Assembly (NCBI GenBank): GCA_946803585.1
Contig: CAMPEQ010000008.1
Location: 141,786-205,785, forward strand
Direction of reading: 5' to 3'
DNA from: an uncultured Actinomycetes bacterium
GTDB taxonomy: Bacteria > Actinomycetota > Actinomycetes > S36-B12 > UBA10799
Length of the DNA: 64,000 bases
Positions 3,055-47,141 of the stretch are shown piece after piece. Each line of letters begins with the position of its first letter. Position 1 is the stretch's first letter. Both the position numbers and the translations under genes were made by a program. The notes below the pieces were generated by a model. The model was not told where the DNA came from. It did no database searches and worked only from the letters and a program-made list of their open reading frames with translations.

Positions 3055-3057
3055 GGG

Positions 3058-27736: not shown

Positions 27737-27836
27737 CACAGACTCCAACACGAGGGCTACCCTGCCAGATCACCTGCACCAAGAGTGACGAGAACCCATT
27801 CGACGCACCGATTCATTACATGGCAGGCTGTCCGAT

Positions 27837-28766: not shown

Positions 28767-30176
28767 ATGACTGCTGAGGCGACGCGGCGCAGGTGGCCGC
28801 GGGTGATGGCCGCGATTCTATCGTCGTTTGTGCTGCTCGCCACTGCCGCTGCCGGAATCGGCGGTCACTACGCGAATAGCCTCACCGACAACATCCGCAT
28901 CAGTACTGACGGCAACTTCCAGCCAGCTAACACCGAAGGCCCGATCGCCGGTGAGCCAATCAACATTTTGCTGATGGGATCTGACACCCGTCAGGGTAAG
29001 AACAGCAAGGGATACGGAAATAAGAACGTCCTCGAGGGCGCCCGTAGTGACACCACCATTCTGCTGCATATTTCGGGCGACCGCTCACGGGCGTTTGCTG
29101 TCTCCATCCCCCGGGACTCCCTCGTCACGCTACCCACCTGCAAGGCCACCGGCGGAGGCACCGACGGCGGCTACGAGACACGGTTTAACGAGGCCTTCGA
29201 CATCGGTGGCCCTGGCTGCTCGGTCAAGGCCGTCCAACAACTGACCGGAATCAGCATTGACCACTACGTCGTCGTAGATTTCACTGGCTTCAAGGAAGTC
29301 ATCAACGCGCTCGATGGTGTCGAAGTGTGCCTAAAGAAGGACGTCTTCGATGCTGAGGCGAAGCTCGATATGAAGGCAGGCAAACACGTCGTCAAGGGTG
29401 AGGAAGCCCTCGCGTTCGTTCGCGCCCGCAAGGCACTCGGCGACGGCAGTGACATCTCACGGATCGATCGCCAGCAGGAGTTCCTCTCGGCAGCGATTCG
29501 CAAAGCCACCTCCGTTGGAGTACTGACCAATCCTGCGCAACTGCTCTCCGTACTGACGGCGGGAAGTAAGTCGCTGACCGCTGATCCTGGCTTGGCCGAG
29601 TTCGATTCCCTCAAAGAGCTCGCGCTCAACGCCTCTGCGGTCGAACCATCGAGCATCACGTTTGCCACAGTTCCGTTCACCTACAACGACGACGGTGGAA
29701 CGGTCTCGTGGATTCCGAGCGAGGCCGACGAGCTTTGGACCGCAATCAAAGAAGACCAACCCTGGCCCCCACCACCCACAAACGGAGCTGATGGTGAACC
29801 GCTGGTCATGGGACCCGACGAGATCAGCATCAATGTCGAGAACGCGAGTGGTCTACGCGGGAGCGCAGCTCGCGCGTCGCGACTGCTCACGACTGAGGAG
29901 TACACCGTCGTCAGCGAGTCCGACGCCAAGACCGAGGGTCCCTCGGCGATCCTCTACAACCCAAAACGACCCGACCAGGTTGAAGCAGCACGGACTCTTG
30001 GTTACGCCACCGGAATCACACCAACTGCAACCAAGAAGGTTAAGAGCGAGTACATCGTCTTCCAGGTTGGATCTGACTTCGACTATGAACTCGAGGCCGT
30101 TGTGCCCACAAAGCCGACTCCAGCAGCAGAAGCGGCGAAGCCGCGCACTGCCGCTGAGGTCAACTGCTCGAGCTAA
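28767..30176 (+). CDS. LCP-family (LytR-CpsA-Psr) glycopolymer ligase, copy 1
   Basis: 469 aa. N-terminal TM anchor, NILLMGSDTRQG, RSDTTILLHISGD and SIPRDS motifs, and a C-terminal LytR_C-like domain. Confidence 0.9.
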   Translation: MTAEATRRRWPRVMAAILSSFVLLATAAAGIGGHYANSLTDNIRISTDGNFQPANTEGPIAGEPINILLMGSDTRQGKNSKGYGNKNVLEGARSDTTILLHISGDRSRAFAVSIPRDSLVTLPTCKATGGGTDGGYETRFNEAFDIGGPGCSVKAVQQLTGISIDHYVVVDFTGFKEVINALDGVEVCLKKDVFDAEAKLDMKAGKHVVKGEEALAFVRARKALGDGSDISRIDRQQEFLSAAIRKATSVGVLTNPAQLLSVLTAGSKSLTADPGLAEFDSLKELALNASAVEPSSITFATVPFTYNDDGGTVSWIPSEADELWTAIKEDQPWPPPPTNGADGEPLVMGPDEISINVENASGLRGSAARASRLLTTEEYTVVSESDAKTEGPSAILYNPKRPDQVEAARTLGYATGITPTATKKVKSEYIVFQVGSDFDYELEAVVPTKPTPAAEAAKPRTAAEVNCSS

Positions 30177-30179
30177 GGC

Positions 30180-31049
30180 ATGACCGACTTCGGAGTCGTA
30201 CTCCTCACCATGGGAAACCGGCCGACGGAACTGAACCGAGCCCTCGATTCCCTGGCTGCCCAGCAAGACGTCACGCTCGACATCGTCTGTGTCGGAAACG
30301 GCTGGCAGCCGACTGGGCTACCGGGCTATGTCAAGACCGAGTACCTTCCAGAGAACCTCGGGGTCTGTGGGGGACGAAATGCCGGAGTCGCCAGAGTCAA
30401 CGGCGAGCTATTGTTCTTCCTCGACGACGACGCCTGGTTGAGCGATCCGCACTTCCTCGCTCGAGCGCTTGCGCACTTTCGTGCCTGGCCTGACCTCGGC
30501 ATCGTTCAACCGCACGTTCACGATCCAGACGCACCGGTTGATGCTCGCAGGTGGATCCCCCGGCTGCGCAAAGGAGATCCCGCACGGTCGAGCTACGCCT
30601 TCACGCTATGGGAGGGTGCGATCGTTGCCCGCCGAAGCGTTTTTGACGCAATCGGCGGTTTCGGGAACGAGCTCTTCTTCTACCACGAGGGTATTGAACT
30701 CGCCTGGCGCTGCTGGGACCAGGGGAGCATCGTTTGGTACGCGGGAGACCTCGTTGCGCACCATCCCAACACCGAAGCGAAACGCCACGTCGACAACGAG
30801 TTCCACCGACTAATCGCCCGCAACCGTGTGTGGATTGCGCGACGTAATCTTCCTCCTGCGCTCGTCCCCCTCTACGTGGGGAGCTGGACCTTAGTTCAGG
30901 TTCTTCGGTCACGCTCTGATAGGCAAGGGCTAGCCGTGTGGATACAGGGATGGCAGGATGGCTGGCGGAGTGATCCAGGCACTAAGCGGCAACTCCGATG
31001 GCGCACCGTATGGGAGATGACCCGGCGAGGACGCGCACCGATCATCTAG
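30180..31049 (+). CDS. Glycosyltransferase family 2 (WbbL-like position)
   Basis: 289 aa. VVLLTMGNRPTEL..., FLDDDAW (DxD) and GGFGNELFFYHEGIELAWR motifs typical of GT2. Confidence 0.85.
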   Translation: MTDFGVVLLTMGNRPTELNRALDSLAAQQDVTLDIVCVGNGWQPTGLPGYVKTEYLPENLGVCGGRNAGVARVNGELLFFLDDDAWLSDPHFLARALAHFRAWPDLGIVQPHVHDPDAPVDARRWIPRLRKGDPARSSYAFTLWEGAIVARRSVFDAIGGFGNELFFYHEGIELAWRCWDQGSIVWYAGDLVAHHPNTEAKRHVDNEFHRLIARNRVWIARRNLPPALVPLYVGSWTLVQVLRSRSDRQGLAVWIQGWQDGWRSDPGTKRQLRWRTVWEMTRRGRAPII

Positions 31050-31180: not shown

Positions 31181-32311
31181 ATGGCGACCGCAGTTTTGCA
31201 CATTGGGACGATGAAGACCGGCACAACGTACCTCCAACAGCTACTGAGCACCAACTCACAACTGTTGGCAGAACAAGGCTGGACACTTCCGGACTTCTTG
31301 CCAGCTAATCATCAGGCTTTCCCGCTCTGTTTCTCGGACAAGACCAGCGACCAGCACAGGACTCGCGGCATGTACGACAGTGCCTCTAAGAACAAGGCCG
31401 CGCTCGACCTGCGGGTTGCGTTGAAGAAGCAGATGAACAGTAGCGCAACTCCCCCCAGCCAACAAAAATGGATCATCTCAAGCGAGCAGTTCACGATGCG
31501 TCTACGATCCCAAGCCGAAATCGCGAAGGCCGTCACGTTTTTCCGGGAAGTGTTCGATTCGGTCTCGGTTGTCGTCTTCTTTCGGCGCGCAGAGTTCATG
31601 CTGCCAAGCGTGCTTTCCCAGCGCATAAAGGATGGGCTCAAGGGCTCCTGGAGTTGGCAGTTTTGTGAGAACCGGCTAGAGCGACTAGACCCGATCCAGA
31701 TCTTTGATGCGTGGTCGGCCGCTGTGGGCGAGGAGAACATAACAGCGGTTCCGTACCTCGAACGCTACAAGTCTGACTCCACCGACTTTCTCGGAGCAAC
31801 CAGTCGAGCGACCGGTATCACCTTCGATAGTCAATGGATAGAACCAGCCCTACTCGAATCAAATCGATCACTCAGTGCGGAAGGGATGGGGTTTATCTCA
31901 CTAACTAACCAGTATGTTCCGCGTCGCGCACTCGATGATCGACGGGCAGCGATCGTCAATCGGCGCCTTAAGAAGAAGATCATGTCAGTAGCTGATCCGG
32001 CACCGTTCGTTCCAGATCAAGAGACACTCGATCGAGTAACCGAATACTGTTCCGAGTCTTGCAACGAACTCGTAGGCCGATTCCCGGAGGATCCGCTGTG
32101 GCAGGCCTGGTTAGACCAGGTCCCGAAAGGAGCGGCCAAGGCCACTCCAACCACACTCACTGCCGAGCGAACCCTCGAGCTCGCAGTTCAAGTCGCCAGC
32201 CCAAACGGCCCTGTCTCGTGGGGCGAGCTCTACGGCGTCCCGCCATCTCGGAAGGAACGAATGCACCGATATTGGGATATCGCCAAGACCAAGGCGTCTC
32301 GTAAGGCGTAG
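31181..32311 (+). CDS. Uncharacterised KTGTT P-loop protein, paralogue 1 (sulfotransferase-like motifs)
   Basis: 376 aa. VLHIGTMKTGTTYLQ, WIISSEQF, VVVFFRRAEFMLPSVLSQRIK, NRSLSAEGMGFI, DPLWQAWL. Aligns full-length with 32321-33436 and 38676-39794. GGGAG RBS 8 nt upstream. Confidence 0.85.
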   Translation: MATAVLHIGTMKTGTTYLQQLLSTNSQLLAEQGWTLPDFLPANHQAFPLCFSDKTSDQHRTRGMYDSASKNKAALDLRVALKKQMNSSATPPSQQKWIISSEQFTMRLRSQAEIAKAVTFFREVFDSVSVVVFFRRAEFMLPSVLSQRIKDGLKGSWSWQFCENRLERLDPIQIFDAWSAAVGEENITAVPYLERYKSDSTDFLGATSRATGITFDSQWIEPALLESNRSLSAEGMGFISLTNQYVPRRALDDRRAAIVNRRLKKKIMSVADPAPFVPDQETLDRVTEYCSESCNELVGRFPEDPLWQAWLDQVPKGAAKATPTTLTAERTLELAVQVASPNGPVSWGELYGVPPSRKERMHRYWDIAKTKASRKA

Positions 32312-32320
32312 CGCTTCGCC

Positions 32321-33436
32321 CTAGCGGCCTCGACCAAGGAGACGTGCTCCACGCAATCGACTCAAGACCCCCGCTTGGGCTACCTCATCACGAGCCGGAG
32401 GCGCGGTCGGTCTCCCCCAATCCATCGGCCCACTCGGCTGTGAAGTAAGTGCCATCACTTCAACAATGCGCTCGGGCGTGATCTCGGGTGTGGCCCCCTC
32501 GTGCCATTCCTGCGATAGCCACTCTTGCCAATCGCAGTCGCCACCGAACTCCTCGATGAAGGAGACATTGGTGCCAGCCACGTTTTCCATCACGCGTTCT
32601 CTTAATTCAGGTGAGAGTCCTAAGGACGCCCCTGGCGTAAGTCCGCCAATCTTGTCGATCAAGTTCCGTCGACGCCGCATGTTCGACTGACCATCGCTAA
32701 TTCGCGGCACGAGTGGATTCACGAGCCTCAGGAACGCAGTCCCCTCGGCACTCAAACCTGGATTCGTTCGGCGACCGCGGGCACTAGCTTCGGTTGGCTG
32801 CAGCAACTCCGTGGGCAGCCCAGCAGCCATAATGAAGTCATTGATAAGGCTTGATTGGGCGCCCTTGTAGTTCTCCTGAAACGGCCGAATAGTAAACGTG
32901 TCGGCGCCAGCGGAAGCCCAGTCCTGACACATGGTGAGGTAGTTGCGCTTTTCTAGCGCGCCGGAAAAGTACTCCCAATCCCAAGCGTCAACCCCGCCCG
33001 CCTTAATCACCTGCGAATACAGACTCGGGAGCATAAAGTCTTGACGGCGAACGTAGCAGAGTAGCTCGATCTCATCAAAATAGGTACGAAAGAAGTCAAT
33101 AACACGAGCCATCCCCGCTGGGTCGCGAACTGTCTTTGTGAAGTGCTCCGTTGAGACAATCCAACGGTCCCTTTCGGGCGCCGAGGCCAAGCCCACCCTG
33201 ATGTCGGCGATCTTCGCATCAGCGGTTATCTGGTCCGTGACTCCGTATAGTCTGTGCCACGAACTTGTGAAGCTGTCGGAGAATGGAAGTGCCATCTCGG
33301 TGTGGTTTGCCCGCGATAGAAACGCTGGGTAGCCCCAGCCGAGCTTGGCTAGGTCTCGACGGTGAGACCGCAGGAAGTGCTGCAAGGACGTCGTTCCGGT
33401 CTTCCCAGTCCCGATGTGCAGCAGTAGTTTCGACAC
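32321..33436 (-). CDS. Uncharacterised KTGTT P-loop protein, paralogue 2
   Basis: 371 aa. LLHIGTGKTGTTSLQ, WIVSTEHF, LLCYVRRQDFMLPSLYSQVIK, NPGLSAEGTAFL, CDWQEWL. Confidence 0.85.
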   Translation of the reverse strand: MSKLLLHIGTGKTGTTSLQHFLRSHRRDLAKLGWGYPAFLSRANHTEMALPFSDSFTSSWHRLYGVTDQITADAKIADIRVGLASAPERDRWIVSTEHFTKTVRDPAGMARVIDFFRTYFDEIELLCYVRRQDFMLPSLYSQVIKAGGVDAWDWEYFSGALEKRNYLTMCQDWASAGADTFTIRPFQENYKGAQSSLINDFIMAAGLPTELLQPTEASARGRRTNPGLSAEGTAFLRLVNPLVPRISDGQSNMRRRRNLIDKIGGLTPGASLGLSPELRERVMENVAGTNVSFIEEFGGDCDWQEWLSQEWHEGATPEITPERIVEVMALTSQPSGPMDWGRPTAPPARDEVAQAGVLSRLRGARLLGRGR

Positions 33437-33533
33437 GAAGAGAGGCTACAGGAGTGCGGCCCCATGGGCCGGATGCGCCACAGCTCGGGGCCTCACGAGC
33501 TAGCCACGCCACCGTACTAGCTAACATAGGCGA

Positions 33534-34847
33534 ATGGTGCGAATTCGCTCTGACTTTGACGCCACGCGTGGCTACTTCCAACGAACATTCCGTGAGCGCA
33601 AGGCGCTAAAGCTGCTGCCCCCCGACTCTGCGCCGGACCACTACCGCGACAAGGAAGTCAAGGTGGCGATCTATTTCGGTAGTGTCGCCAACCTCGCATA
33701 TCAGGTGAACCAATGGCTGGACCCATTCAGAGCGGTACTTGATAAGCACGAGGTCGTCCTGGTGACGAGAAAGCCAACCGCAGCCCTGGAATTCCTCCAA
33801 GCGGGTTGGCCGAATGTTGTCTACCTTAAGAAGTTGTCCGATGTTGATGAATTCATGCATCGGCACCCCATTCAGCTGATGTTCTATGTGAATAACTCCG
33901 GCGCGAACCTAGGCATGCTCGCCTTCCCTGCGACGTTCCATATCTCGCTGGGACACGGCGAGTCAGACAAGACAGCCTCATCAACAAACCAATTCCGCGC
34001 GTACACCTTTGTATTCGTCCCTGGTGAAGCCGGTCGGAGAAGGTTTGCCAATCAACTGTTGGACTTCGACTGGCAATATCGAATCAGGGAGGTAGGCCGA
34101 CCCCAAATTGATACTGAGCATCCGACCCACCCGATACCTGAATCTGATCGGATTAGCGTGCTATACGCGCCCACCTGGGAGGGCGATAAGCCGACAGGGC
34201 GATACGGGTCGACGGCGAGCCACGGAGTCGCCATGGTTTCATCGCTACTGAGCTCAGGACGGTATCGGGTTGTGTTTCGTCCGCACCCGCTGGCAGGTAG
34301 TCTTCTACCAGCCGAGAAGGTTGCGACGCTTGAGATCCAGAAACTACTACTGGATGCCAACAAACAGGACCCCCATGCTCACCATGTGCTGGACGACTCA
34401 CCGTCTTTCGGGTGGCACCTGGCACAGCTCGACATGTGTATTTCTGATATCTCATCGGTTGCATTCGACTGGATGGCCACTGGAAAGCCCCTCATCGTCA
34501 CTGAACCAGCAGCAGAATCAACAATTCCGAGTCCAACCGGAATCTCGGTCGCACTGCCACTCCTCCGCACAGACCAAGCGCAGAATGTGGCGGATATCTG
34601 CCAGACACTGTCAACGGACGGGATGCCAGATTCGTACCGTGATGCGATTCGGTACTACTTCGGCGATACCTCGCCCGGCTCAAGCAGGAAACGCTTCCGA
34701 GACGCTGTAGACGCCCTCCTCGAGGAGCACAGCAGAGCTTTGGTGGCCCGTAGCACGCGCCGTGAGGTGATCGCGGCCACGCCCATTACAGAGCAATTCG
34801 GTCATCCAACCCCACGGAATCACAACCACGAGGAAGACCGGAGCTAG
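33534..34847 (+). CDS. CDP-glycerol/ribitol glycerophosphotransferase-family protein (TagF-like), copy 1
   Basis: 437 aa. LGHGESDK, VLYAPTWEGD and FRPHPL motifs as in TagB/TagF-type polyol-phosphate transferases. Paralogous to 35986-37206. Confidence 0.78.
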   Translation: MVRIRSDFDATRGYFQRTFRERKALKLLPPDSAPDHYRDKEVKVAIYFGSVANLAYQVNQWLDPFRAVLDKHEVVLVTRKPTAALEFLQAGWPNVVYLKKLSDVDEFMHRHPIQLMFYVNNSGANLGMLAFPATFHISLGHGESDKTASSTNQFRAYTFVFVPGEAGRRRFANQLLDFDWQYRIREVGRPQIDTEHPTHPIPESDRISVLYAPTWEGDKPTGRYGSTASHGVAMVSSLLSSGRYRVVFRPHPLAGSLLPAEKVATLEIQKLLLDANKQDPHAHHVLDDSPSFGWHLAQLDMCISDISSVAFDWMATGKPLIVTEPAAESTIPSPTGISVALPLLRTDQAQNVADICQTLSTDGMPDSYRDAIRYYFGDTSPGSSRKRFRDAVDALLEEHSRALVARSTRREVIAATPITEQFGHPTPRNHNHEEDRS

Positions 34848-35896
34848 CTTCGCCACTTCTTGGCTTTACGTTTAAAGCCCTTCTTTACGCGATTTAGGTT
34901 GACTTCTCCCGTGCTTGCCCCCGCAGCATCGTACGACCAAATGACCACTTCCCAGCGTGTTGGAAATACGTGCGTCCGAACCTTCGCTTTTGTCAATGAA
35001 CCACTCACGGTGACATATCGCTGCTTTGTCCACGTTCCCTTCTTCTTGCTGAGGTGACGGTAGCCGATCCGGTAACTCAGAACCCGATCACTGTTAATCC
35101 CGGTGCGTTTCCATCTCGCCACAAGCTTCTTGGGCTTGTGCTTGACTTGGACTTTTGAAGGTGGGCCCGCCTGACGCGGAGCATTCCAACACCCCGTTCC
35201 CTGGCTGTACGCCCAACGGGTACCGAACGGGATCGAGTTCCAGCTCGAGAAGCCGAGAACTGCAGGAAACGTCGTCCCTGAACCATCCACGCACGCCCGG
35301 AGCTCACCCGGGTCATCTGCATCTCGGGTGGGGAAGGGGCCAGTGTCCTTGGTCGCGAAGTGAAGTGAGTTGGAGGTGCACGAATCGCCACCGAAAGTGC
35401 CAATCGGGGTATCCTCGGACACCACTTGGCCGTTGCTGACAAGGATGGAACCTAGATGGACGTAACGGCTGGAGTCACCTCCTCCGTGATCAATCCAGAG
35501 GGAGCCACCGTCACACTTGCTGGCCGGATCCGTGATGTTCGCGATTCCCCCACCAGCTGCATAGACCAATGTCCCGCGGGGAGCGGTGAAGTCCAACGCC
35601 CAGTATCCGTGGTCAGGCTTGCCGCCGCTGATGCAGTTGCTATAGACGCAGCCGATCCTTGCGCTATCACGAAATGGCAAGTAGCGGGGCTTCGTGAAGA
35701 CATCTCCAGGCGGAGTCGTTTCCACCGACCGCGCAGCCGACGCGCTCGGGGGTGCCTCCGGATCCGCCGCGTTCGCAGATGACGTTCCAACAACACCACT
35801 GCCCAGCAGCGCCCCCACGCTTACCAAGGCTCCAAGGACCAGCCAGCGTCGGTTCCCACTTCTCAAACGAACCATGTCAGGAATATCGGCTTGCAT
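34844..35896 (-). CDS. Secreted M23/LytM-like peptidase-domain protein with a basic FN3-like C-terminal domain
   Basis: 350 aa. Signal-like N-terminus (RRWLVLGALVSVGALLGSGVVGTSSANA). LytM-like core HGYWALDF...GTLVYAAGGG...IDHGGGDSSRYVHL...SLHF. The C-terminal ~100 aa are Lys/Arg-rich with a W..Y.I.Y..W FN3-like pattern. Confidence 0.7.
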   Translation of the reverse strand: MQADIPDMVRLRSGNRRWLVLGALVSVGALLGSGVVGTSSANAADPEAPPSASAARSVETTPPGDVFTKPRYLPFRDSARIGCVYSNCISGGKPDHGYWALDFTAPRGTLVYAAGGGIANITDPASKCDGGSLWIDHGGGDSSRYVHLGSILVSNGQVVSEDTPIGTFGGDSCTSNSLHFATKDTGPFPTRDADDPGELRACVDGSGTTFPAVLGFSSWNSIPFGTRWAYSQGTGCWNAPRQAGPPSKVQVKHKPKKLVARWKRTGINSDRVLSYRIGYRHLSKKKGTWTKQRYVTVSGSLTKAKVRTHVFPTRWEVVIWSYDAAGASTGEVNLNRVKKGFKRKAKKWRS

Positions 35897-35985
35897 ACTT
35901 ACAATCCTTAGCGAAAGGCTGCAACTTTTCCTGTTGGCGAAGAGTAACTGCCAGAATCTTTGCGAAGGTCACTCGCACGCCACCT

Positions 35986-37206
35986 CTACAAGCGACCCAA
36001 CGCCTTCAACCCGGCGTCTCGTGTCCGAAGGACGTCCTCGGTCGCATTGCGGAATCGCGTCATTGCCGAACCTTCACCAAAGCAGTACTTCCGCAGATCG
36101 TCGAGCTCCGCCGCCCCCTCGTCGGTGAGCTGACTGTCTAGGAGACCAACGAGGTCAGGACCTGAGTTAGGGGCCCAGCGCGGCAAGTTCGCAGACATAC
36201 TTGTGGAATCAACCAATGCTTGTGGCGAAGCCGGGTCACAAATTACTAGCGGTTTACTCGTGGCCAGCCAGTCGAACGCCACAGCCGATACATCAGTAAC
36301 GCAAAAATCGGCGACCTCGGCCTGCCATCCGAACTCAGCACCTAGATCAGTGAAATGACCGGCTCCGCGATCTTGGGAGGCTGCCGCAGCGATTCTCTCG
36401 GTCAAGGCCTTTACAGCCTTGCCGTAATCCGTCCGGACATCGCCACTAAGGGGATGGGGGCGAAAGATGATTCGTACTCGTCCATCGGCCAAGGCTTCGT
36501 CGATTACATGACGGCCGTGCGATTCAACCGACCCATACGCGTTCGAAGCCCGGTCGCCCTCCCAACTGGGTGCATAGAGCAAGGTGAACTGTTTTGATGT
36601 GGGACCGGCCAAGTTCGATCGCCTCGTTGGAAAATCCACCTGCGGCCGTCCAATTGGGACAAGTCGTTGATTGGCATCAAAATTGATCAATCGACGTCGG
36701 ATACGATCGATGGCTGCCTGACCTGCCACAAAGGCAAAGTCATAGGACTTCAGCTGATTAGACGCCGACACCGCGAGCTTGTCCGACTCGCCGTGACCCA
36801 GGTAGACGTGAGTGACTCCAGGGTGCGACAACATCGCGAAGTTGCTCTTGTGGTGATTTACGTAGAAGACCGCCCGAATGCCGCGCCGCTCGACTAGTGG
36901 ATCAAGCTCAGAGTGCCGCCCTGCGTATTCCACCGGGAGACAAAAATCTGGATCTTTCAGCGCCTGAACTGCAGAATCGGCGCACCGAAAGACCACCTCT
37001 ACGGCGAATTCCTCGCTCAAACTTTTTAGGGGCTCCACCCATTGACGAAGCTGGTACATGTTCTGAGCTGGGTCGCCAAAGTAGACGGCTATGTCGAAAC
37101 GGTCGACCTCCGACGCTTGCTGGCCGCTCAGCCGAGTTAGCTGCCTTCGCGCGGCTCGCTCGCTGATCTTCCGTTTCGCCTCACGAATCTCGGCCGTACC
37201 ACGCAT
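35986..37206 (-). CDS. CDP-glycerol/ribitol glycerophosphotransferase-family protein (TagF-like), copy 2
   Basis: 406 aa. LGHGESDK, LLYAPSWEGD and FRPHPLSG motifs. The start abuts the stop of the upstream synthase gene (37207). Confidence 0.78.
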   Translation of the reverse strand: MRGTAEIREAKRKISERAARRQLTRLSGQQASEVDRFDIAVYFGDPAQNMYQLRQWVEPLKSLSEEFAVEVVFRCADSAVQALKDPDFCLPVEYAGRHSELDPLVERRGIRAVFYVNHHKSNFAMLSHPGVTHVYLGHGESDKLAVSASNQLKSYDFAFVAGQAAIDRIRRRLINFDANQRLVPIGRPQVDFPTRRSNLAGPTSKQFTLLYAPSWEGDRASNAYGSVESHGRHVIDEALADGRVRIIFRPHPLSGDVRTDYGKAVKALTERIAAAASQDRGAGHFTDLGAEFGWQAEVADFCVTDVSAVAFDWLATSKPLVICDPASPQALVDSTSMSANLPRWAPNSGPDLVGLLDSQLTDEGAAELDDLRKYCFGEGSAMTRFRNATEDVLRTRDAGLKALGRL

Positions 37207-38679
37207 CTAATCGTTGCCTTTCCCAACTCCCACTTCGGAGCCTGCTTCCAACTCCGCCGCCGCGAACGGATCCACCCGTCTGACATCGATGATGTGGCCG
37301 GTTTGCTCCGCAAGTAAGACGTCGACAGATGTTGCGGCAACTACTTCGCTCTCCAGAAGACTCCCTGGCGGTTCAACTCCGAAAGCGCTCGTTCTCATTG
37401 GGGTGCCCGTTCGCTCGGGATTGATACAGTTCACCCTCACACCGGCCCGCGCCCACTCGTCAGCGAGTGCCTGCGTTAGGTTCACCAGTCCCGCTTTCGC
37501 AGATGAATACAAGCTATAACTCGCCCTCCCCCGCGTGTAGGAACTAGACGTGAACAAGAGTAGAGAACCTCTGGAAGCCGCTAGGTGAGGGTAGAACTCT
37601 TGCGCGATGAAGATCGGCGCGAGGTAGTTGACGCCAGTTGCGTGATAGATGGTCTCCTCGGATGCCTCAGTCAACGAACCGCGCGGCAACACCCCAGCAG
37701 TATTGACGACGAAGTCAACCCGACCCGTCTGCGCGACTACCGTCTTACAAGCGGCCCGCACATCGTCTCGGTTCTCGACGTGTGTACCAGTCGACGAGCG
37801 CGAGAAGGAGAATACGTCCGCACCATACCCCCGCGCAAGATCAGCAATGTCTCCGCCGATTCCATAAGAGCCACCGAAGACCACGAGCGTCTTGCCAGCA
37901 AGTTCTTTCTCGTACTCTTCGCGGCTACGTCCCTCTGGCCGGTCGTGGCTACCAAGCTGAAACAACTTATCTGCCACAAAGACGTCGATTGGTTCGGTGA
38001 CTTTCATGTTCTGCTCGCTACCGTGAACAACGGCAATCGGAACCTCGGGCAGATACCGGAGCACGACGGTGCAGTCATCGGTCGCCACAAATCCAGGGTC
38101 AGCTGCAGCTTTCGCATATGCCGCTCGGATAACGGAGAGTTTGAAAGCTTGAGGCGTCTGCCCTCGCCGCAGTAGGTGACGCGGAAGTACATCGACTATC
38201 TGCTCAAGGCGGCCGGTCGAACTGTCAGCTGTTCGGGGCTCGTCGACTTGAATGATCGTGTCAGCAGAGGGAATCGCAGTATCGACGGCAGAGTAGGTTT
38301 CGAGCGCCCTAATCAGGTCTCGAATGATTCGCTCAGACAACAGCGGGCGGACCGCATCGTGAAACAAGACATTGCATTCCTGCGCACCCAATGCCTCGAT
38401 CGCACGCTCGGTCGTCCCGTTTCGAGTATCAGCTCCCTCAAGGATCTGGGTAACCTTTTGATACTCGCCGTTCTTCACAATCTCGCGAATCGCATCGAGA
38501 TGCCCCGGCGCCATCATGACGATGATCTCGTCGATCGCGTCGGAGTCCTCTAGCAGCGCAATCGTGTGCTCCACGATTGGACGCCCTGCCACCTTGATTA
38601 GTTGCTTGGGAATGGAAAGCCCGACTCTTGCACCCACGCCCCCTGCCAGCACTACAGCTGCGTTGCGAACCCTACTCAT
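37207..38679 (-). CDS. Fused IspD/TarI-type cytidylyltransferase + SDR reductase (Bcs1-type CDP-ribitol synthase candidate)
   Basis: The N-terminal half has AVVLAGGVGARVGLSIPKQLIKVAGRPIVEHT. The C-terminal half is a classical SDR (VFGGSYGIGG, NTAG, YSSAKAG). I chose the ATG at 38679, which forms an ATGA overlap with the upstream stop. The track ORF extends to 38736. Confidence 0.8.
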   Translation of the reverse strand: MSRVRNAAVVLAGGVGARVGLSIPKQLIKVAGRPIVEHTIALLEDSDAIDEIIVMMAPGHLDAIREIVKNGEYQKVTQILEGADTRNGTTERAIEALGAQECNVLFHDAVRPLLSERIIRDLIRALETYSAVDTAIPSADTIIQVDEPRTADSSTGRLEQIVDVLPRHLLRRGQTPQAFKLSVIRAAYAKAAADPGFVATDDCTVVLRYLPEVPIAVVHGSEQNMKVTEPIDVFVADKLFQLGSHDRPEGRSREEYEKELAGKTLVVFGGSYGIGGDIADLARGYGADVFSFSRSSTGTHVENRDDVRAACKTVVAQTGRVDFVVNTAGVLPRGSLTEASEETIYHATGVNYLAPIFIAQEFYPHLAASRGSLLLFTSSSYTRGRASYSLYSSAKAGLVNLTQALADEWARAGVRVNCINPERTGTPMRTSAFGVEPPGSLLESEVVAATSVDVLLAEQTGHIIDVRRVDPFAAAELEAGSEVGVGKGND

Positions 38680-39794
38680 CCCTTTGACCTGCCCTCTCTG
38701 AACATCTCGCGAGATACGCTCCTGAACATGCCCCATTGACGACGCAGACGCGAGCCGGGCAATACCTCCGGGGGTACTGGCCCGCGCGGCTGCGAAATCC
38801 CGGCGATCAGCTCGCTACGCCTATCGCGGGAGAGCACCACGTGCGAACCCGCCTGATCGCGATCAATCGGATACGCCAACCACTCGTCCCACTCGAGTCC
38901 GCCACCAAGCTCTGCAACAAGTTTGGCGTTGGATTCACGATAGTGACTAGCGATCTTCGCTAACGTCCGACCATCTGGAACAAACTGCTGACTGTCCGAT
39001 GTCAACGCCATCACTCTAGCTACGGTCTTGGCTCGGATCCGCGTATTCACGCTAGTGTCCTGTTCCAATGCCACAATGACCGGATTGATCTCACGCAGGA
39101 ATGCAATCCCCTCGCTAGTAAGCGAAGCATTCACCCTGCGTCGTCTCGCCTTTACTGGTTCGGTCAAACGGATAGTGGTTGCGGCCTGAAACCGTTCGAG
39201 GAGCACGTTCGCGTCCGACTTAAAAGACTCGAGGTAAGGCAAAGCAATGATGTTCTGGGGCCCCACCGTGCTGGCCCAACGCGAGTACATCTCCCAATAG
39301 TCGAAGTGTCTCAACTGACGTTGGCAGTATGACCACGACCAGCGAGACGACCCGCCACGCTTGATCGACTGCGAATAGTAACTCGGGAGCAAGTTCTCCT
39401 GGCGCCGAAAAAAGACGATCACTACGATTCGGTCGAAGTACCTCCGAAGGAAGTCAACTGCGTCGGTCACTTCAGCTTCCGACGCTAGTCTGCTGCTGAA
39501 GTACTCGCTAGTCATCACCCAACGATCGTCAGGCTGGACCCGGTCCCGCAGCGCTCCCTCTAGCTCCGAAATGAACGCTGCCCGACGCTCGGCAGTGTCG
39601 ATTCCCGTTCGGAGGTGCTCCCTGGAAAGCCGACGCTGAAACGGGACGGCAAACTCCCAGTGGTTTCGCTTGCCGTTGAACTCTGGATACTTCCAACCTT
39701 GCTCCTGCAATACCTCCGCATTCACCCGCAGGTGCGATTGCAGCATCGTGCTTCCAGTCTTAACAGTTCCGATATGAAGCAGCAGCTCTGCCAC
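38676..39794 (-). CDS. Uncharacterised KTG(S)T P-loop protein, paralogue 3
   Basis: 372 aa. LLHIGTVKTGSTMLQ, WVMTSEYF, VIVFFRRQENLLPSYYSQSIK, NASLTSEGIAFL, LEWDEWL. GTG start with GAGG 6 nt upstream. Confidence 0.85.
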   Translation of the reverse strand: MAELLLHIGTVKTGSTMLQSHLRVNAEVLQEQGWKYPEFNGKRNHWEFAVPFQRRLSREHLRTGIDTAERRAAFISELEGALRDRVQPDDRWVMTSEYFSSRLASEAEVTDAVDFLRRYFDRIVVIVFFRRQENLLPSYYSQSIKRGGSSRWSWSYCQRQLRHFDYWEMYSRWASTVGPQNIIALPYLESFKSDANVLLERFQAATTIRLTEPVKARRRRVNASLTSEGIAFLREINPVIVALEQDTSVNTRIRAKTVARVMALTSDSQQFVPDGRTLAKIASHYRESNAKLVAELGGGLEWDEWLAYPIDRDQAGSHVVLSRDRRSELIAGISQPRGPVPPEVLPGSRLRRQWGMFRSVSREMFREGRSKG

Positions 39795-41021: not shown

Positions 41022-41191
41022 CTGGATTTCTACCCTTTGGATCATCAAGCGGTGTGTGCGCGATGTCCTCAACTGACGATCGCGACGTCGGCCGCAGACA
41101 GTCTACGGGAGCGGCTGAATCCGCGCGCCTACCCGAGCGTTCGACACGGCACAACCGGAGACGACATACCGTCGTCGGCTACGCTCGTTCC

Positions 41192-42588: not shown

Positions 42589-43371
42589 CTAGAAGTCCTC
42601 AAGCGTCGTTGCTGCGTCTGGGTTTACCCCGGTCTCGCCGTTGTAGGCAGCAATCACTTCTTCCGGCTCGCCCATGAGCTTAAGCTCACCCTTCTCTAGC
42701 CACATTGCGTCGGTGCACATCTCTCGGATTGTGCCTAGCGCGTGCGACACAACGAGCATCGTGTGAGCCTGACTCAACAGTTCATCCATCTTGGCCATCG
42801 CTTTGGCCTTAAAGTAGGCGTCTCCGGTCGAGAGCGCCTCATCCACAATCAAGATATCCGGCTCCATATGGACGGCGACGGCGAACGCGAGCCGACTCGA
42901 CATACCAGAGGAGTAAGTCTTGACCGGCATTTCCATAAAGTCCCCGAGTTCGCTCCACTCGGCGATCTCGTCAGTCTTGCGCTCCACTTCAGCTCGGGTA
43001 TAGCCGGCCGCCAATCCACCTAGGACGATGTTCTCGTAGCCAGTGAGCTTGTTATTGAAGCCGACTCCGAGCGCCAGCAGCGTGCTAACTCGCCCACGGA
43101 TCTCGATTCGTCCCTTGGTCGGTGGGAGAATTCCGGCAACGGCCCGAACGAGGGTCGATTTCCCCGCGCCGTTGCGGCCAATGATGCCCAGGACACGACT
43201 TCGCGGCAGCTCAAAACTGACGTTCTTGACTGCCTCTACCTCACGCACCATGCGCTTTCCGCGACCGGCCCGCCGGACGGCCTCCCGCATCGTCGGACGG
43301 CGCTCAAAGGTCGTGCGATAGGTGACAGACAAGTTCTCTACGCGAACCGCGGGCTCAGATCCGGACGGCAA
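42589..43371 (-). CDS. ABC transporter ATP-binding protein, polysaccharide/teichoic-acid export type (TagH/Wzt-like)
   Basis: 260 aa. Walker A GRNGAGKST, signature YSSGMSSRL, Walker B ILIVDEALS. Confidence 0.88.
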   Translation of the reverse strand: MPSGSEPAVRVENLSVTYRTTFERRPTMREAVRRAGRGKRMVREVEAVKNVSFELPRSRVLGIIGRNGAGKSTLVRAVAGILPPTKGRIEIRGRVSTLLALGVGFNNKLTGYENIVLGGLAAGYTRAEVERKTDEIAEWSELGDFMEMPVKTYSSGMSSRLAFAVAVHMEPDILIVDEALSTGDAYFKAKAMAKMDELLSQAHTMLVVSHALGTIREMCTDAMWLEKGELKLMGEPEEVIAAYNGETGVNPDAATTLEDF

Positions 43372-44236
43372 AGTCCCGCTCCCTCGTTAAGAAGACGTAT
43401 AGCCCTACCGCAAGCGAGGCAAGCGCCCAGATAGAAGAGACAATCCAGGCTTGCCCGGCAGGCCATGATCCATAGACAAACGCCGCACTAAACGACGCGA
43501 CGAGGTCGAAGACCGGATTCACGATCCGGATCCAATCAAACCGCTCTGGTAGCTGACTGACCGACCACAGGATCGGGCAAGCGTAGAACCAAAGTCGCAT
43601 GAAGTACGGCATGAACTGGCGCGTATCCCGGAAGTACACCTGTGCCGTCGCCAGCATCAGGGCCATTCCCGTTGAGAAAACCAACATGATCGCGACGAGT
43701 GGAATACACGCAATCCAGCTCCAGTGTGGACGCACCCCGGTAGCGAGTGCGAGCACAATCAAAACGCCAATGGCCGGAAGTAGCTCAGAGATTGATGTGC
43801 GTACAGCGGATAGCGGGAGGAGCAGCTTTGGGAATGAAGTATTCGTCACCATCTTCCCGGCGCTCTGGACGGACTTCGCGCCGTACTTGGTGCAGTTCTG
43901 CAATATCTCGAAGAAGAACAGACCGCCAACCAGGTAGATGAAGAAGTTCGGGATTGCTGCACCACGAGCCAAGATAAGGACCAACAGGTAGTAGACCACG
44001 CTCATAAACAGCGGATCTAGAATCGACCAGAGGCGCCCAACCCAGGTGTCTTGCTGATTCGCACGTGCAGTCGATGTTGCCATCTCGCGGAGGAATTCGC
44101 GGCGGCGCCACAGTTCTCGTACGTACGCCCCCATGTGCGGAGGTAGTCCGGCCTTGTACGGCTCGTAGACATGGAAGTTGCTGTTGAACTCATCGTCTCC
44201 GGCGGAGTCCTTAGTACCGACGGCGGTACCTGTCAC
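43355..44236 (-). CDS. ABC-2 type transporter permease (TagG/Wzm-like)
   Basis: 293 aa, about six TM segments. 17-nt overlap with the ATPase gene. GTG start with GGGAG upstream. Confidence 0.85.
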   Translation of the reverse strand: MTGTAVGTKDSAGDDEFNSNFHVYEPYKAGLPPHMGAYVRELWRRREFLREMATSTARANQQDTWVGRLWSILDPLFMSVVYYLLVLILARGAAIPNFFIYLVGGLFFFEILQNCTKYGAKSVQSAGKMVTNTSFPKLLLPLSAVRTSISELLPAIGVLIVLALATGVRPHWSWIACIPLVAIMLVFSTGMALMLATAQVYFRDTRQFMPYFMRLWFYACPILWSVSQLPERFDWIRIVNPVFDLVASFSAAFVYGSWPAGQAWIVSSIWALASLAVGLYVFLTRERDFAVRI

Positions 44237-44372: not shown

Positions 44373-45476
44373 TCAAAGGCCGTACTTGGGTTGTGGTGAG
44401 TCGGGAGTCTCTGCGAGCTGTGGGAGTTTAGGCCCGGAGGTGAGGAATCCGACACCCCATGCCATGTGCATCGTCACCAAGGCAACCGGGACTCGCAGTC
44501 GAACCTCCGGGGACTCACGGCGAGCGACCACCACTCCACCAAGTGCCACGGCACCGAGGTACGCGACGGGGGCGAGCCACCCCAACCGAGCCAGCCGTGT
44601 GAGGGAGTTGCTGCGGCTCCTCTCTACCAACCCGCTCGCTAACCCTGCCCCGATTCCGACGCCAACAGCGATCACGGCCGCTGGGGGTGCGAGATATCGA
44701 AATTGGGCCGTGCCGCGGTGCTGGCGCATGATTTCTCTGCGCCACGTTCCGTATTGGAAATACTGGCGCGCGAGCGCCTTGACCGTGGGACGCGGGCGAT
44801 AAGAGACATGCATCGCCGGGTTGAACCACACCAAACCTCCGCTAGCTCGGATTCGATGGTTCATTTCCCAGTCCTGAGCGCGATCAAACCGCTCGTCATA
44901 GCCGTTGACCCTGCGAAGCGCTGACGCTCGGAATACGCCGAGATAGACGGTGTGAGCCTCGCCCTCTTGGCCTCCGATGTGGAATGCGGCACCACCGACA
45001 CCGATTGGCGAGGTCATGGCCACTGCAACCGCGGATTCGAACGGGGTCTCCCCTATCGCAGCCATCACGCCGCCAACGTTGTCGGCTCCAGTCCGCTCCA
45101 ACGTCTCTAGCGCCACCTTGATGTAGTCGGGCGGAAGCTCACAATGACCGTCCACCCGTACAACGACCTCCGCGTTCGCCTGAGCGAGGGCCGCGTTGAG
45201 CCCTGCGGGGGTTCGCCCTGTCGGGTTTGGCACCGTCTTGACCCGTGAATCCGAGGCACACAACTGCGCGGCGACTCGGTCAGTCTCGTCGGTAGAGGGC
45301 CCAAGCGCCAAAATCACTTCTAGTGACCCATCGAAGTCCTGCTTGAGAATCGCGCCAACTGCGGTCGAAAGGTAGTTCTCTTCGTTCAGTACCGGCATCA
45401 CCACCGAGACGGATACTCGAGGATCGTCGCCGGCGTCATCGGCCGCCATAGTCGACCCGACAGGTGGGTTGGTCAT
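44373..45476 (-). CDS. Glycosyltransferase family 2 with C-terminal TM segments (ExoA-like)
   Basis: 367 aa. VSVVMPVLNEENYL, VRVDGH and QDWEMNHR motifs, followed by hydrophobic C-terminal helices. Confidence 0.82.
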   Translation of the reverse strand: MTNPPVGSTMAADDAGDDPRVSVSVVMPVLNEENYLSTAVGAILKQDFDGSLEVILALGPSTDETDRVAAQLCASDSRVKTVPNPTGRTPAGLNAALAQANAEVVVRVDGHCELPPDYIKVALETLERTGADNVGGVMAAIGETPFESAVAVAMTSPIGVGGAAFHIGGQEGEAHTVYLGVFRASALRRVNGYDERFDRAQDWEMNHRIRASGGLVWFNPAMHVSYRPRPTVKALARQYFQYGTWRREIMRQHRGTAQFRYLAPPAAVIAVGVGIGAGLASGLVERSRSNSLTRLARLGWLAPVAYLGAVALGGVVVARRESPEVRLRVPVALVTMHMAWGVGFLTSGPKLPQLAETPDSPQPKYGL

Positions 45477-45737: not shown

Positions 45738-47141
45738 ATGGCCGCCACGACCGACGCACCAAAGCGCCCACGTCGGCGAACGATTGCCGTCGTTGTCGCG
45801 GCTGGAGTGCTTGCCGTCTCCGGTATCGGTTACGCGACTGCCTCAGAAGTGACCGGACAGGTCGAACGTGTCGATGTCTTTTCCGCGGTAAAGAATCGCC
45901 CGGACAACGATGGCGGCACGAATATCCTCCTCATAGGCTCTGATGACCGCACCGGGTTGACCAAAAAGGAACGCCGCGAACTCCACGTCGGTCAGGGCGA
46001 ATACGGTCGCAACACCGACTCGATGATGGTGGTTCATATCGCCGACGACGGATCAATCGGCGTCGTGAGTATCCCACGCGACTCATACGTCGAGATTCCG
46101 TCGCACACGGGCCCGACCGGAGTCACCAGCGACGCCTCGAAGCAGAAGATCAACGCCGCCTACAGCATCGGCGGACCAAGCCTGGCCGTTCAAACGGTCG
46201 AGCAAGCCACTGGTGTTCATATTGACCACTACGCCGAGATTAACTTCGCAGGATTTGTCTCAATGGTCGACGGCTTGGGCGGAGTTCCGATCTGCACCAA
46301 GACCCCCATAGTTGACGAGAAAGCTGGACTCGATCTTCCGGCCGGTGAGCAGACCCTCGACGGGGCACAAGCTCTCGGCTTTGTGCGGGCTCGTTACTTT
46401 GACCCGAGTGCCGACCTAGGCCGGATGAAGCGCCAACAGCAGTTCCTCGGGGCGATGTTCAACCAGGCCAGTAGCCCGAGCGTATTGATCAACCCGCCCC
46501 GCCTTCTCTCATTCCTCAATACCGCAGCCGGGTCCATCACCGTTGATGACAACTTCAGCAATGCCGAAATGTGGGGTTTGATGGGCAAACTACGCTCAGT
46601 AAGCCCCTCTGCAATCACTTTTCAAACCGTTCCGGTTGGGGCAGAGGTTAATGCTGGTGGAGTCGGGTCAGTAGTCGAATGGGATACGGCGAAGTCCGAA
46701 GAACTGTTTGCAAAGCTCAAGACCGGTGATCCGTTGACGGCCAGCAGTAAGAAGAAGGACACCACTGAGACAGTTGAGATCGCACCGGGCAACATCTCTG
46801 TGAGGGTCTACAACGGCTCGACGGTATCCGGCCTCGGCAGTAAGGCCGCCAAGGAGCTTGAGGAAGCGGGCTACTCCGTGACCGGAACAGTTCTGAATGC
46901 TCAGAAGAGCACCGGAACTGAGACCGTGATCGAGTACGACCCGCGGTACAGCACTTCGGTCAAAACCCTGGAAGCTGCGTTCCCCAACGCTACTTTCAAA
47001 GAGGTCGATAACTTCGGTCGGACCTTCCGGGTAACAGTCGGCAGCGACTACGACGGAGTCAAGCCGGTCACGGTTGCCGGTGTCTCGGGCGATGCTGATC
47101 CAGATAAGCCTCAGACCGCCGCAGACGATCTTTGCGCCTAA
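45738..47141 (+). CDS. LCP-family (LytR-CpsA-Psr) glycopolymer ligase, copy 2
   Basis: 467 aa. TM anchor, NILLIGSDDRTG, RNTDSMMVVHIADD and SIPRDSYV motifs, and a C-terminal LytR_C-like domain. Confidence 0.9.
   Translation: MAATTDAPKRPRRRTIAVVVAAGVLAVSGIGYATASEVTGQVERVDVFSAVKNRPDNDGGTNILLIGSDDRTGLTKKERRELHVGQGEYGRNTDSMMVVHIADDGSIGVVSIPRDSYVEIPSHTGPTGVTSDASKQKINAAYSIGGPSLAVQTVEQATGVHIDHYAEINFAGFVSMVDGLGGVPICTKTPIVDEKAGLDLPAGEQTLDGAQALGFVRARYFDPSADLGRMKRQQQFLGAMFNQASSPSVLINPPRLLSFLNTAAGSITVDDNFSNAEMWGLMGKLRSVSPSAITFQTVPVGAEVNAGGVGSVVEWDTAKSEELFAKLKTGDPLTASSKKKDTTETVEIAPGNISVRVYNGSTVSGLGSKAAKELEEAGYSVTGTVLNAQKSTGTETVIEYDPRYSTSVKTLEAAFPNATFKEVDNFGRTFRVTVGSDYDGVKPVTVAGVSGDADPDKPQTAADDLCA

Follow-up and report, generated by a model that had tools for sequence, protein, structure and literature searches.

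Wall teichoic acid (WTA) is decorated in the cytoplasm by soluble enzymes, TarM and TarS in Staphylococcus aureus and TagE in Bacillus subtilis, which act on the lipid-linked polymer before its export by TagGH/TarGH, and strain-variable decoration of WTA alters surface recognition. Here we describe three paralogous genes (copies 1, 2 and 3, of subfamilies c1, c2 and c3) from a 64,000-nucleotide stretch of contig CAMPEQ010000008.1 of an uncultured Actinomycetes bacterium, hereafter the window. The genes lie in a wall-polymer locus and very probably encode sulfotransferases dependent on 3'-phosphoadenosine 5'-phosphosulfate (PAPS).

Sulfotransferases share four hallmarks: a strand-loop-helix 5'-phosphosulfate-binding (PSB) loop whose catalytic residue is Lys or Arg, a strand-turn-helix 3'-phosphate-binding (PB) site with a Ser in the helix, a beta-sheet core, and a His or Glu base (PMC11625862). 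Ester sulfate and glycerol phosphate occur together, as verified chemically, in the capsule of Cobetia marina KMM 1449, ->4)-a-L-Rhap2S-(1->3)-b-D-Manp6PGro-(1->, which is made through an ATP-binding cassette (ABC) transporter pathway encoded by a cluster with sulfotransferase genes, cysNC, cysD and cysQ (PMC11766843). Sulfation of cell walls or exopolysaccharide has been predicted from genomes, without chemical proof, for Pontimonas (PMC6106888) and Actinoplanes (PMC13390465), and a 2026 paper treats sulfated polysaccharides in actinomycetes as still unverified (PMC13390465). The initial annotation of the window knew of no characterised teichoic-acid pathway with a component of the kind described here; our literature search, in which subscription journals were thinly covered so that the negative is a weak one, likewise turned up no sulfated teichoic acid and no link between WTA sulfation and PAPS.

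Three paralogues with sulfotransferase-type PAPS-binding elements

The three open reading frames (ORFs, Table 1) are full-length paralogues, with 71 invariant columns and 36% identity to copy 1 in a MAFFT alignment, and pairwise identities of 34–35% by BLASTP. Their end-to-end alignment at 376, 371 and 372 aa, noted at the outset, is borne out by coordinates, lengths and the pairwise and multiple alignments (34–36% identity overall), and all the motif blocks listed at that stage are present: LHIGTxKTG(T/S)T, W(I/V)x(S/T)(S/T)ExF, (F/Y)(F/V)RRx(E/D)xxLPSxxSQxIK, Nx(S/G)L(S/T)xEGxxF and W(Q/D)xWL. Each copy matches the family hidden Markov model (HMM) with an E-value of 1e-128 to 1e-150; this HMM was built including copies 1–3, and independent homologues match up to E 1e-164. 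The likeness among the three copies is far above chance.

The public gene call for copy 2 is shorter (354 aa, L080 3141–4205) and starts 17 codons inside the ORF (window 33385–33436, - strand). This start is probably wrong: the loop HIGTxKTGTT, invariant in the family, is missing from the 354-aa call. To keep the conserved N-terminus, copy 2 has to start at the GTG at 33436, which is not preceded by any evident Shine-Dalgarno-like sequence.

Sulfotransferase families were the sole, sub-threshold matches in a Pfam scan of the three proteins: copy 1 matched Sulfotransfer_3 (PF13469) with an E-value of 1.6e-4 (22.4 bits) and copy 3 with an E-value of 7e-4 (20.3 bits), both under the 27-bit cut-off. 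A scan of copies 1–3 against NCBIfam gave nothing meaningful, and a PDB sequence search with a 3-sequence profile returned only a designed protein (E 0.36). When the profile was built from 103 family sequences, PDB matches were sulfotransferases exclusively, the best being 3RNL (E 5.7e-6), with which the family has a W178/G183/N228 block in common. The recurrent Pfam matches of these 103 single-domain members were, again, only Sulfotransfer_3 (24 members, taken at E<=0.01), Sulfotransfer_1 (8) and Sulfotransfer_4 (1).

AlphaFold models of copy 1 (predicted local distance difference test [pLDDT] score 89, predicted template modelling [pTM] score 0.84) and copy 2 (pLDDT 88.6, pTM 0.84) both have four predicted parallel-sheet strands with helices on both sides. 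In Foldseek searches of the PDB, the best matches of both models were sulfotransferases. Copy 1 retrieved 3RNL, TPST1, CurM-ST, 3-OST-5/3/1 and NDST1 at a probability of 1.0, with TM-scores of up to 0.44 normalised to the query (TMq) and up to 0.58 normalised to the target (TMt); copy 2 retrieved 3RNL first (TMt 0.63), followed by retinol dehydratase and CurM-ST, at probabilities of 0.98–1.0. 3RNL was thus the top fold match for both models, with E-values of 2e-5 for copy 1 (TMt 0.52) and 1.6e-4 for copy 2. P-loop kinases and GPN GTPases also appear in the Foldseek lists, closer behind for copy 2 than for copy 1, as would be anticipated from the kinase-like fold of sulfotransferases. A sulfotransferase is therefore not told from a kinase by its fold; the motifs do separate them. 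The model of copy 1 has in addition ~45 helical residues inserted behind helix 1 and, at the C-terminus, a helical region of ~145 residues. About two-thirds of the protein had initially been left unassigned; in the model this part is mostly sulfotransferase domain with the helical insertion, followed by the C-terminal helical region.

The first predicted strand of copy 1 (residues 3–9) leads through the loop H7-I-G-T-x-K12-T-G-T-T16 into a helix (15–24), and a later predicted strand (127–134) is followed by an R135-R136 turn and a helix (137–150) bearing S143. Among 103 diverse homologues, K12, Q19 and R135 are conserved in every one, E102, G9 and N228 in 102 of the 103, and H7, T13, G14, S143 and W178 in 101 each; H44 is conserved in 91. 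Copies 1–3 all keep K12, R135, E102 and S143. The spacing in the PB element is R-x7-S, and the Asp is only partly retained (E/D/F at position 139).

Alignment by hhalign sets the family consensus LHIGTeKTGTT over LLIIGPQKTGTT of the NDST1 N-sulfotransferase, and the longer LHIGTeKTGTTxLQ over LLIIGPQKTGTTALY, so that K12 is the equivalent of Lys614 (the NDST1 query was checked to be identical to PDB 1NST chain A, residues 49–325). The 103-member profile likewise aligned the family block IGteKTGTT to VGAAKCGTS of 3RNL, and YlRRqdelllSlYS to the SULT2A8 PB motif liRNPRDVLVSGYH. A Walker A motif (GxxxxGK[ST]) was considered and rejected: the residue after the second Gly is Thr in 83 and Ser in 20 of the 103 homologues, and never Lys. 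The reading of KTG(T/S)T and RRxDxxxxS as 5'-PSB and 3'-PB loops and not as a Walker A, proposed in the initial annotation, agrees with the NDST1, 3RNL and SULT2A8 alignments and with the near-absolute conservation of the key residues among homologues.

The models and alignments show the fold and both PAPS-binding elements, with K12 as the predicted catalytic lysine and R135/R136 with S143 as the predicted 3'-phosphate site. E102 would be the best candidate for the base, with H44 as an alternative. We conclude that copies 1–3 are divergent new members of the known sulfotransferase superfamily, below the cut-off of every existing Pfam sulfotransferase model, and we consider it highly likely that they are PAPS-dependent sulfotransferases.

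The wall-polymer locus and its variation among relatives

The genes around the three copies (Table 1) form the transcription units LCP1-GT2a-c1 (+ strand), c2 (-), TagF1 (+) and (ACAD)-c3-TarIJ-TagF2-M23 (-), where ACAD stands for an acyl-CoA dehydrogenase gene. Copies 1 and 2 are convergent, with 9 bp between their stop codons, and copy 2 and TagF1 are divergent and 97 bp apart. This is the gene order originally described: a family-2 glycosyltransferase (GT2) gene precedes copy 1, copy 2 diverges from a TagF-like gene, and copy 3 is translationally coupled (ATGA, overlap at 38679–38676) to the operon of the CDP-ribitol-synthase-like and TagF-like genes. The same overlap with the stop of copy 3 sets the start of the TarIJ-like gene.

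Table 1. Features of the window discussed in the text, with positions in nucleotides of the window
Feature	Position	Strand	Remarks
Copy 1 (c1 subfamily)	31181..32311	+	376 aa, predicted PAPS-dependent sulfotransferase; ends LCP1-GT2a-c1 unit
Predicted PSB loop, codons H7-T16 of copy 1, HIGTMKTGTT	31199..31228	+	strand-loop-helix; NDST1 alignment, conservation
Candidate catalytic base, E102 codon of copy 1	31484..31486	+	SSE motif ending strand 96-100; inferred from conservation and model
Predicted PB strand-turn-helix, codons R135-Q147 of copy 1, RRAEFMLPSVLSQ	31583..31621	+	conservation, SULT2A8 alignment
Copy 2 (c2 subfamily)	32321..33436	-	371-aa ORF; convergent with copy 1, divergent from TagF1
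Copy 3 (c3 subfamily)	38676..39794	-	372-aa ORF; stop overlaps start of probable CDP-polyol synthase gene (ATGA)
LCP1, LytR-CpsA-Psr (LCP) ligase (polymer attachment to peptidoglycan)	28767..30176	+	PF03816 160.9 bits, LytR_C
GT2a, family-2 glycosyltransferase upstream of copy 1	30180..31049	+	PF00535 43 bits
TagF1, CDP-glycerol/polyol-phosphate transferase-like	33534..34847	+	PF04464 36.2 bits, cut-off 22.1
M23 peptidoglycan metallopeptidase	34844..35896	-	PF01551 52.6 bits
TagF2, second TagF-like, directly downstream of TarIJ-like gene	35986..37206	-	PF04464 37 bits, cut-off 22.1
TarI/TarJ-like fusion (IspD-type cytidylyltransferase and short-chain dehydrogenase/reductase), 490 aa	37207..38679	-	PF01128 147.9 bits, adh_short 105 bits
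TagGH/Wzm-Wzt-like ABC exporter	42589..44236	-	permease 43355-44236, ATPase 42589-43371; ABC2_membrane, ABC_tran
GT2b, second family-2 glycosyltransferase	44373..45476	-	PF00535 79.2 bits
LCP2, second LCP ligase	45738..47141	+	PF03816 169.7 bits
Fourth, canonical sulfotransferase (TPST/Sulfotransfer_3 type)	18283..19197	+	PF13469 78 bits, cut-off 27

The TarIJ-like fusion is a probable CDP-ribitol or CDP-polyol synthase, as suggested by its domains, which score above the Pfam cut-offs; its NCBIfam scores for ribitol-5-phosphate cytidylyltransferase (134.7 bits, cut-off 166) and IspD (160, cut-off 181) both fall short. The two LCP genes are well above their Pfam cut-off. No NCBIfam equivalog was found for the two TagF-like proteins. 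The best NCBIfam matches of the exporter are teichoic-acid and galactan export subunits, below cut-off, and its ATPase is only 260 aa long, without a C-terminal carbohydrate-binding extension. UDP-glucose dehydrogenase and GDP-mannose pathway genes are also encoded in the locus. TagO and TagA had no match among the window ORFs scanned against Pfam, and no systematic search for them was made; their genes may be located in another part of the genome.

Orthologous loci were found on four other contigs (L001 and L004, which belong to one metagenome-assembled genome, L003 and L082), with flanking genes 60–96% identical. Copy 3 has positional orthologues in L004 (73% identical), L082 (72%) and L003 (56%), invariably upstream of the TarIJ-like gene, and copy 2 has them in L001 (57%) and L082 (59%), invariably beside TagF1. 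The copy 1 orthologue in L082 is 67% identical, and P0002 and P0003 are copy 1 orthologues at 68% and 62%. TagF1 and c2 are present together in the window, L001 and L082. L003 is without c2 or c1 genes and its best TagF1 match is only 37% identical; being without both c2 and a close TagF1, it makes c2 appear to covary with TagF1. TagF2 has orthologues in L003 (50%) and L082 (62%), and GT2a is 76–82% identical in L001, L003 and L082, with or without a following c1-type gene. The initial proposal had been that each copy is paired with a different polymer-building transferase. Covariation lends support to the pairings of copy 2 with TagF1 and of copy 3 with TarIJ-TagF2, and none to that of copy 1 with the GT2, as GT2a occurs with or without c1.

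L082 and L001/L004 are near-identical at the DNA level (98–99% identity in GT2a, TarIJ, c3 and the UDP-glucose dehydrogenase gene) and differ sharply at the c1 position. A 1.46-kb segment of L082 carrying c1 (330–1787) is unmatched in L001, which has instead (2490–6353) three recently duplicated genes of another subtype, 68–76% identical to one another. This is cassette replacement between near-identical strains at the c1 slot. The adjacent c2-TagF1 segment is only 87.5% identical between L082 and L001, a divergence which suggests a recombination hot spot. In a more distant relative, L083, four tandem copies of the family lie beside ACAD, the ABC exporter, GT2b and LCP2. Consistent with a horizontally exchanged surface-glycan region is a dip in GC content to 0.57–0.58 over 30–40 kb of the window, the block of sulfotransferase and TagF genes, against 0.60–0.62 in most of the remainder.

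A general link between the family and TagF was also considered and rejected. Co-occurrence of the family with TagF-like genes, suggested at the outset as worth surveying across Actinobacteria, was seen within this lineage and nowhere outside it among the fetched loci, and the association is lineage-specific.

Several other features of the window were noted. The M23 gene, situated between TagF1 and TagF2, shares 4 bp with the end of TagF1; of the loci fetched, only the window and L082 have it. ACAD (39840–41072, -), odd for a glycan locus, lies between copy 3 and the UDP-glucose dehydrogenase gene, and is intact in the window, L003 and L083 and fragmented in L082 (9444–10069) and L004 (9411–9704). 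The listed TTG start of the UDP-glucose dehydrogenase ORF (40844–42541, +) makes it overlap the opposite-strand ACAD by 229 nt; its Pfam match begins at residue 130, and the real start is probably near 41.2 kb. Further upstream are an F420 biosynthesis cluster (19975–25016: an FbiC-like radical SAM fusion, CofD and an FbiB-like ligase-nitroreductase fusion) and an Rv3264c-type mannose-1-phosphate guanylyltransferase gene (26666–27751), which jointly assign the organism to Actinomycetota. A scan of 28.5–41.5 kb predicted 0 promoters (3.8 expected) and 11 terminators (10.2 expected), which is uninformative for a high-GC actinobacterium.

Family breadth and supply of PAPS

An exhaustive profile search returned 36,831 representative clusters at E<=1e-3, the weakest of which probably take in other sulfotransferase families, 22,684 at E<=1e-10 and 4,327 at E<=1e-30. 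The idea that the family is rare, which would fit the 20 matches of a word-indexed search, was thereby rejected. Among species-representative genomes, more than 423 relatives were found in Pseudomonadota, Cyanobacteriota (Prochlorococcus, Crocosphaera and Leptolyngbya among the carriers), Bacteroidota, Verrucomicrobiota, Clostridia and Actinomycetota. The family lacks a Pfam or NCBIfam model that matches at cut-off and all named members are called "hypothetical protein", in keeping with the family having been described as unassigned from the beginning.

At least two copies of the family are present in 21 of 80 loci. Some giant members match the family profile two to four times in tandem; of seven long members scanned, four have canonical Sulfotransfer_1 or Sulfotransfer_4 domains as well, and one has a family-4 glycosyltransferase (GT4) domain. 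P0027, P0029, P0030, P0033 and P0036 (1136–1676 aa) have three or four tandem family matches, and four of these five carry Sulfotransfer_1/Sulfotransfer_4. Such giant tandem members may be multi-site 'sulfation machines'.

Copy 1 gave no tblastn match to plasmids; more central family members, used as queries, did match. A homologue is present in 57 Phaeobacter plasmid records, and no Synechocystis record was matched by the central members, which gives no link to the characterised synechan xss sulfotransferases. On plasmid pP54_e of Phaeobacter inhibens (L086, NZ_CP010655.1), the gene of the member WP_102877921.1 (8989–10008) and the end of a GT4 gene overlap, within an ABC-transporter polysaccharide locus that also has a 'sulfotransferase family 2' gene and GDP-fucose genes.

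With E. coli CysC, CysN, CysD and CysH as tblastn seeds, cysD/cysN(/cysC) genes were found in the flanks of 5 of 79 loci, where ~0.8 would be expected at an assumed background of 1% per 20-kb neighbourhood (P ~1e-3). A sixth, L084, emerged from a context look-up and has a CysD gene and a CysN-APS-kinase fusion (APS, adenosine 5'-phosphosulfate) with family genes on both sides. The actinobacterial L005, a Nanopelagicales contig, has a similar but incomplete arrangement, and in neither of these two loci is there another gene between the cys genes and the family genes. In L084 (157–6820) and L005 (1–4430), cysD and cysN-APS kinase stand between two family genes and are followed by an Exo_endo_phos (EEP) gene, whose product might be a phosphatase acting on 3'-phosphoadenosine 5'-phosphate or on the polymer. 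All four modules uncut by a contig end (L031, L064, L072 and L084) include APS kinase, and their product is thus PAPS and not just APS.

The 142 nearest-neighbour ORFs from 46 loci include GDP-mannose dehydratase and epimerases (7), GT4 (7), GT2 (6), Sulfotransfer_3 (5), Sulfotransfer_2 (3), CysN (3), FkbM methyltransferases (3) and CysD (2). From this family-wide gene context we infer PAPS as the donor and a glycan as the acceptor.

The window also encodes a fourth, canonical sulfotransferase (18283–19197) with a PSB loop RSGTT and a PB motif MVRDGRDVAAS, whose best PDB sequence matches are tyrosylprotein sulfotransferases. The family HMM does not match it, which places it outside the three-copy family. 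Indirectly, the presence of this gene points to PAPS synthesis in the organism. It is flanked by a phosphomannomutase gene and fbiC, at a distance of ~12 kb from copy 1.

Proposed role, alternatives and comparison with known systems

We suggest that copies 1–3 are soluble cytoplasmic PAPS-dependent sulfotransferases of ~375 aa, belonging to a large unannotated branch of the superfamily. E102, in the SSE motif that closes the third core strand, would take the proton from a hydroxyl of the acceptor, which would then attack the PAPS sulfur in line, with H44 as an alternative base; the ~145-aa C-terminal helical region, with conserved N228, N243 and N294, would form the acceptor cleft, and a basic C-terminal tail might, speculatively, hold the enzyme at the membrane. 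The acceptor would be a lipid-linked teichoic-acid-type polymer made from CDP-polyol by the neighbouring TagF-like transferases, sulfated at the cytoplasmic face ahead of its export through the TagGH-like ABC transporter and its attachment to peptidoglycan by LCP proteins. In S. aureus, TarM and TarS glycosylate WTA at this stage. A cytoplasmic location is proposed because the proteins are without a signal peptide (in the copy 1 model, strand 1 begins already at residue 3) and PAPS is cytoplasmic. Three old subfamilies, ~35% identical, may then sulfate different positions or units, c3 together with TarIJ and TagF2, c2 with TagF1, and c1 from an exchangeable slot, the outcome being a strain-variable sulfation pattern on the cell surface. 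We hold this full model, the teichoic-acid-type acceptor included, to be reasonably likely, with less assurance than the sulfotransferase activity. More tentatively still, and at somewhat less than even chance, we propose that this lineage makes a multiply O-sulfated teichoic-acid-type wall polymer, with exchange of cassettes, in number and in type, between near-identical strains giving a strain-specific 'sulfation code'.

Several observations weigh against the model or parts of it. Copy 2 has zero Pfam matches and none of the three copies reaches the gathering score of PF13469 (27 bits); because that score is missed, the copies are, on profile evidence, filed under the sulfotransferase superfamily and not as PF13469 members. 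The hhalign comparison with NDST1 aligned the PSB block alone, at 40% probability, and E102 can therefore not be equated with Glu642 of NDST1. Foldseek TM-scores are modest (TMq 0.37–0.44), and for copy 2 P-loop kinases follow just behind the top sulfotransferases at similar E-values. Within the 64-kb window, tblastn found none of cysC, cysN, cysD and cysH, and the 1% background behind the cys enrichment is an assumed rate. Outside this lineage, TagF-like genes are not linked to the family in the fetched loci. The acceptor, finally, is inferred from gene neighbourhood alone.

This last point leaves some room for genuine PAPS-dependent sulfotransferases with another acceptor, such as a glycan built by GT2 enzymes and UDP-glucuronate, a linkage unit, a glycolipid or a small molecule. 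Adjacency is all that ties the copies to a teichoic acid, two GT2s, a UDP-glucose dehydrogenase and GDP-mannose pathway genes are part of the locus too, and other lineages have the family in ordinary polysaccharide loci that contain no TagF; glycolipids, moreover, are acceptors of actinobacterial sulfotransferases such as Stf0 (PMC11625862). We nevertheless consider another acceptor unlikely, as copy 3 is translationally coupled to the probable CDP-polyol synthase gene in all four related loci, c2 covaries with TagF1, and all three copies lie inside a block bounded by LCP ligases and the ABC exporter. A different use of the same chemistry would be capping. In ABC-transporter-dependent O-antigen pathways, a terminal modification (e.g. 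by WbdD) ends the chains and licenses export, and the C-terminal carbohydrate-binding extension of Wzt-family proteins recognises terminal caps. Sulfation of the non-reducing end could by analogy stop growth of the polymer and license its export, and export by an ABC transporter and the tie of each copy to a particular polymerase-like gene would suit this; the 260-aa exporter ATPase, however, is without the cap-reading extension, and neither loci with as many as four or five copies (L001/L004, L083) nor proteins that have three or four domains in tandem fit easily with a single cap. Capping therefore seems improbable. The initial annotation had allowed for either acceptor-specific decoration or chain capping; decoration is the favoured half of that proposal, given the several tandem copies per locus and the form of the ATPase.

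That the proteins are instead ATP-using P-loop kinases or phosphotransferases, acting on the polymer or a precursor, appears very unlikely. The sulfotransferase fold does derive from that of P-loop kinases, and the Foldseek lists contain adenylate kinases, PFKFB kinase domains and GPN GTPases with probabilities of 0.9–0.99, especially for copy 2. Against this, the loop departs from GxxxxGK[ST], with Thr or Ser at the position of the Walker A lysine, K12 falls at the PSB lysine position of sulfotransferases in a loop that matches NDST1, and the Arg/Ser pair of the 3'-PB site, which has no role in a kinase, is conserved in 101–103 of 103 homologues; zero kinase families were matched in Pfam or NCBIfam, and PAPS-synthesis genes are neighbours of the family. 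CurM-ST and retinol dehydratase, both among the best structural matches, bring to mind one further possibility, namely that sulfate is transferred transiently, as a leaving group for elimination or rearrangement, and that the mature polymer is sulfate-free. This is extremely improbable: an elimination partner (thioesterase, decarboxylase) is not evident in the locus, and the family occurs in polysaccharide loci with other sulfotransferases, systems of a kind that give stably sulfated polymers (PMC11766843).

If sulfation of a teichoic-acid-type polymer is real, it would be a new wall chemistry in Gram-positive bacteria and a new class of WTA tailoring beside D-alanylation and glycosylation. 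Speculatively, it could aid evasion of phages and grazers or add negative charge without spending phosphorus. The c1 cassette swap, in strains that are otherwise 98–99% identical in the flanks, gives a tangible example of microdiversity in the surface glycans of uncultured bacteria. A family of thousands of clusters also becomes assignable, with the caveats given above, to PAPS-dependent glycan sulfotransferases. Such re-annotation would affect polysaccharide loci of roseobacters, cyanobacteria (Prochlorococcus, Crocosphaera) and many uncultured aquatic bacteria, and has a bearing on the bacterial share of sulfated polysaccharide in aquatic carbon pools. The plasmid-borne WP_102877921.1 of P. 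inhibens offers a culturable, genetically tractable host for work on the family.

The closest mechanistic relatives of the family are the heparan sulfate N- and 3-O-sulfotransferases (NST/3-OST), and its closest solved structure is 3RNL. NDST1 (PDB 1NST) and 3-OST-1/3/5 are of the same fold class (TMq 0.39–0.44 against copy 1), the PSB loop of NDST1, IIGPQKTGTT, is near-identical to the family's HIGTxKTGTT, and both have the Arg/Ser strand-turn-helix of the 3'-PB site. NST and 3-OST use a Glu base (PMC11625862), and E102, the family's candidate base, is also acidic. The differences are an identity of only ~10–14%, the ~45-residue insertion and ~145-residue C-terminal region of the family, and the location, predicted to be the bacterial cytoplasm for the family and the Golgi lumen for NST/3-OST. 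3RNL, from Alicyclobacillus acidocaldarius, is the best match by both fold and profile, and its PDB title gives only 'sulfotransferase'. PF13469, which includes NodH and TPST-like proteins, is the Pfam model most often touched by family members, yet copies 1–3 stay below its cut-off.

Among actinobacterial enzymes, mycobacterial Stf0 is, as predicted for the family, a cytoplasmic sulfotransferase and is fed by CysD and CysN-CysC, a module like the one that abuts family genes in L084 and L005. Stf0, however, sulfates trehalose for a glycolipid and has Arg/Ala in its PSB loop where the family has Lys/Gly (PMC11625862). In function, the closest WTA analogues would be TarM, TarS and TagE, which transfer sugars from UDP-sugars and have GT-A/GT-B folds, unlike the family. 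The closest verified system is the C. marina capsule, which follows the same logic as that proposed here. The C. marina polymer is a Gram-negative kps-type capsule on a lipid anchor, with phosphate as a side group, whereas here an LCP-attached wall polymer is proposed.

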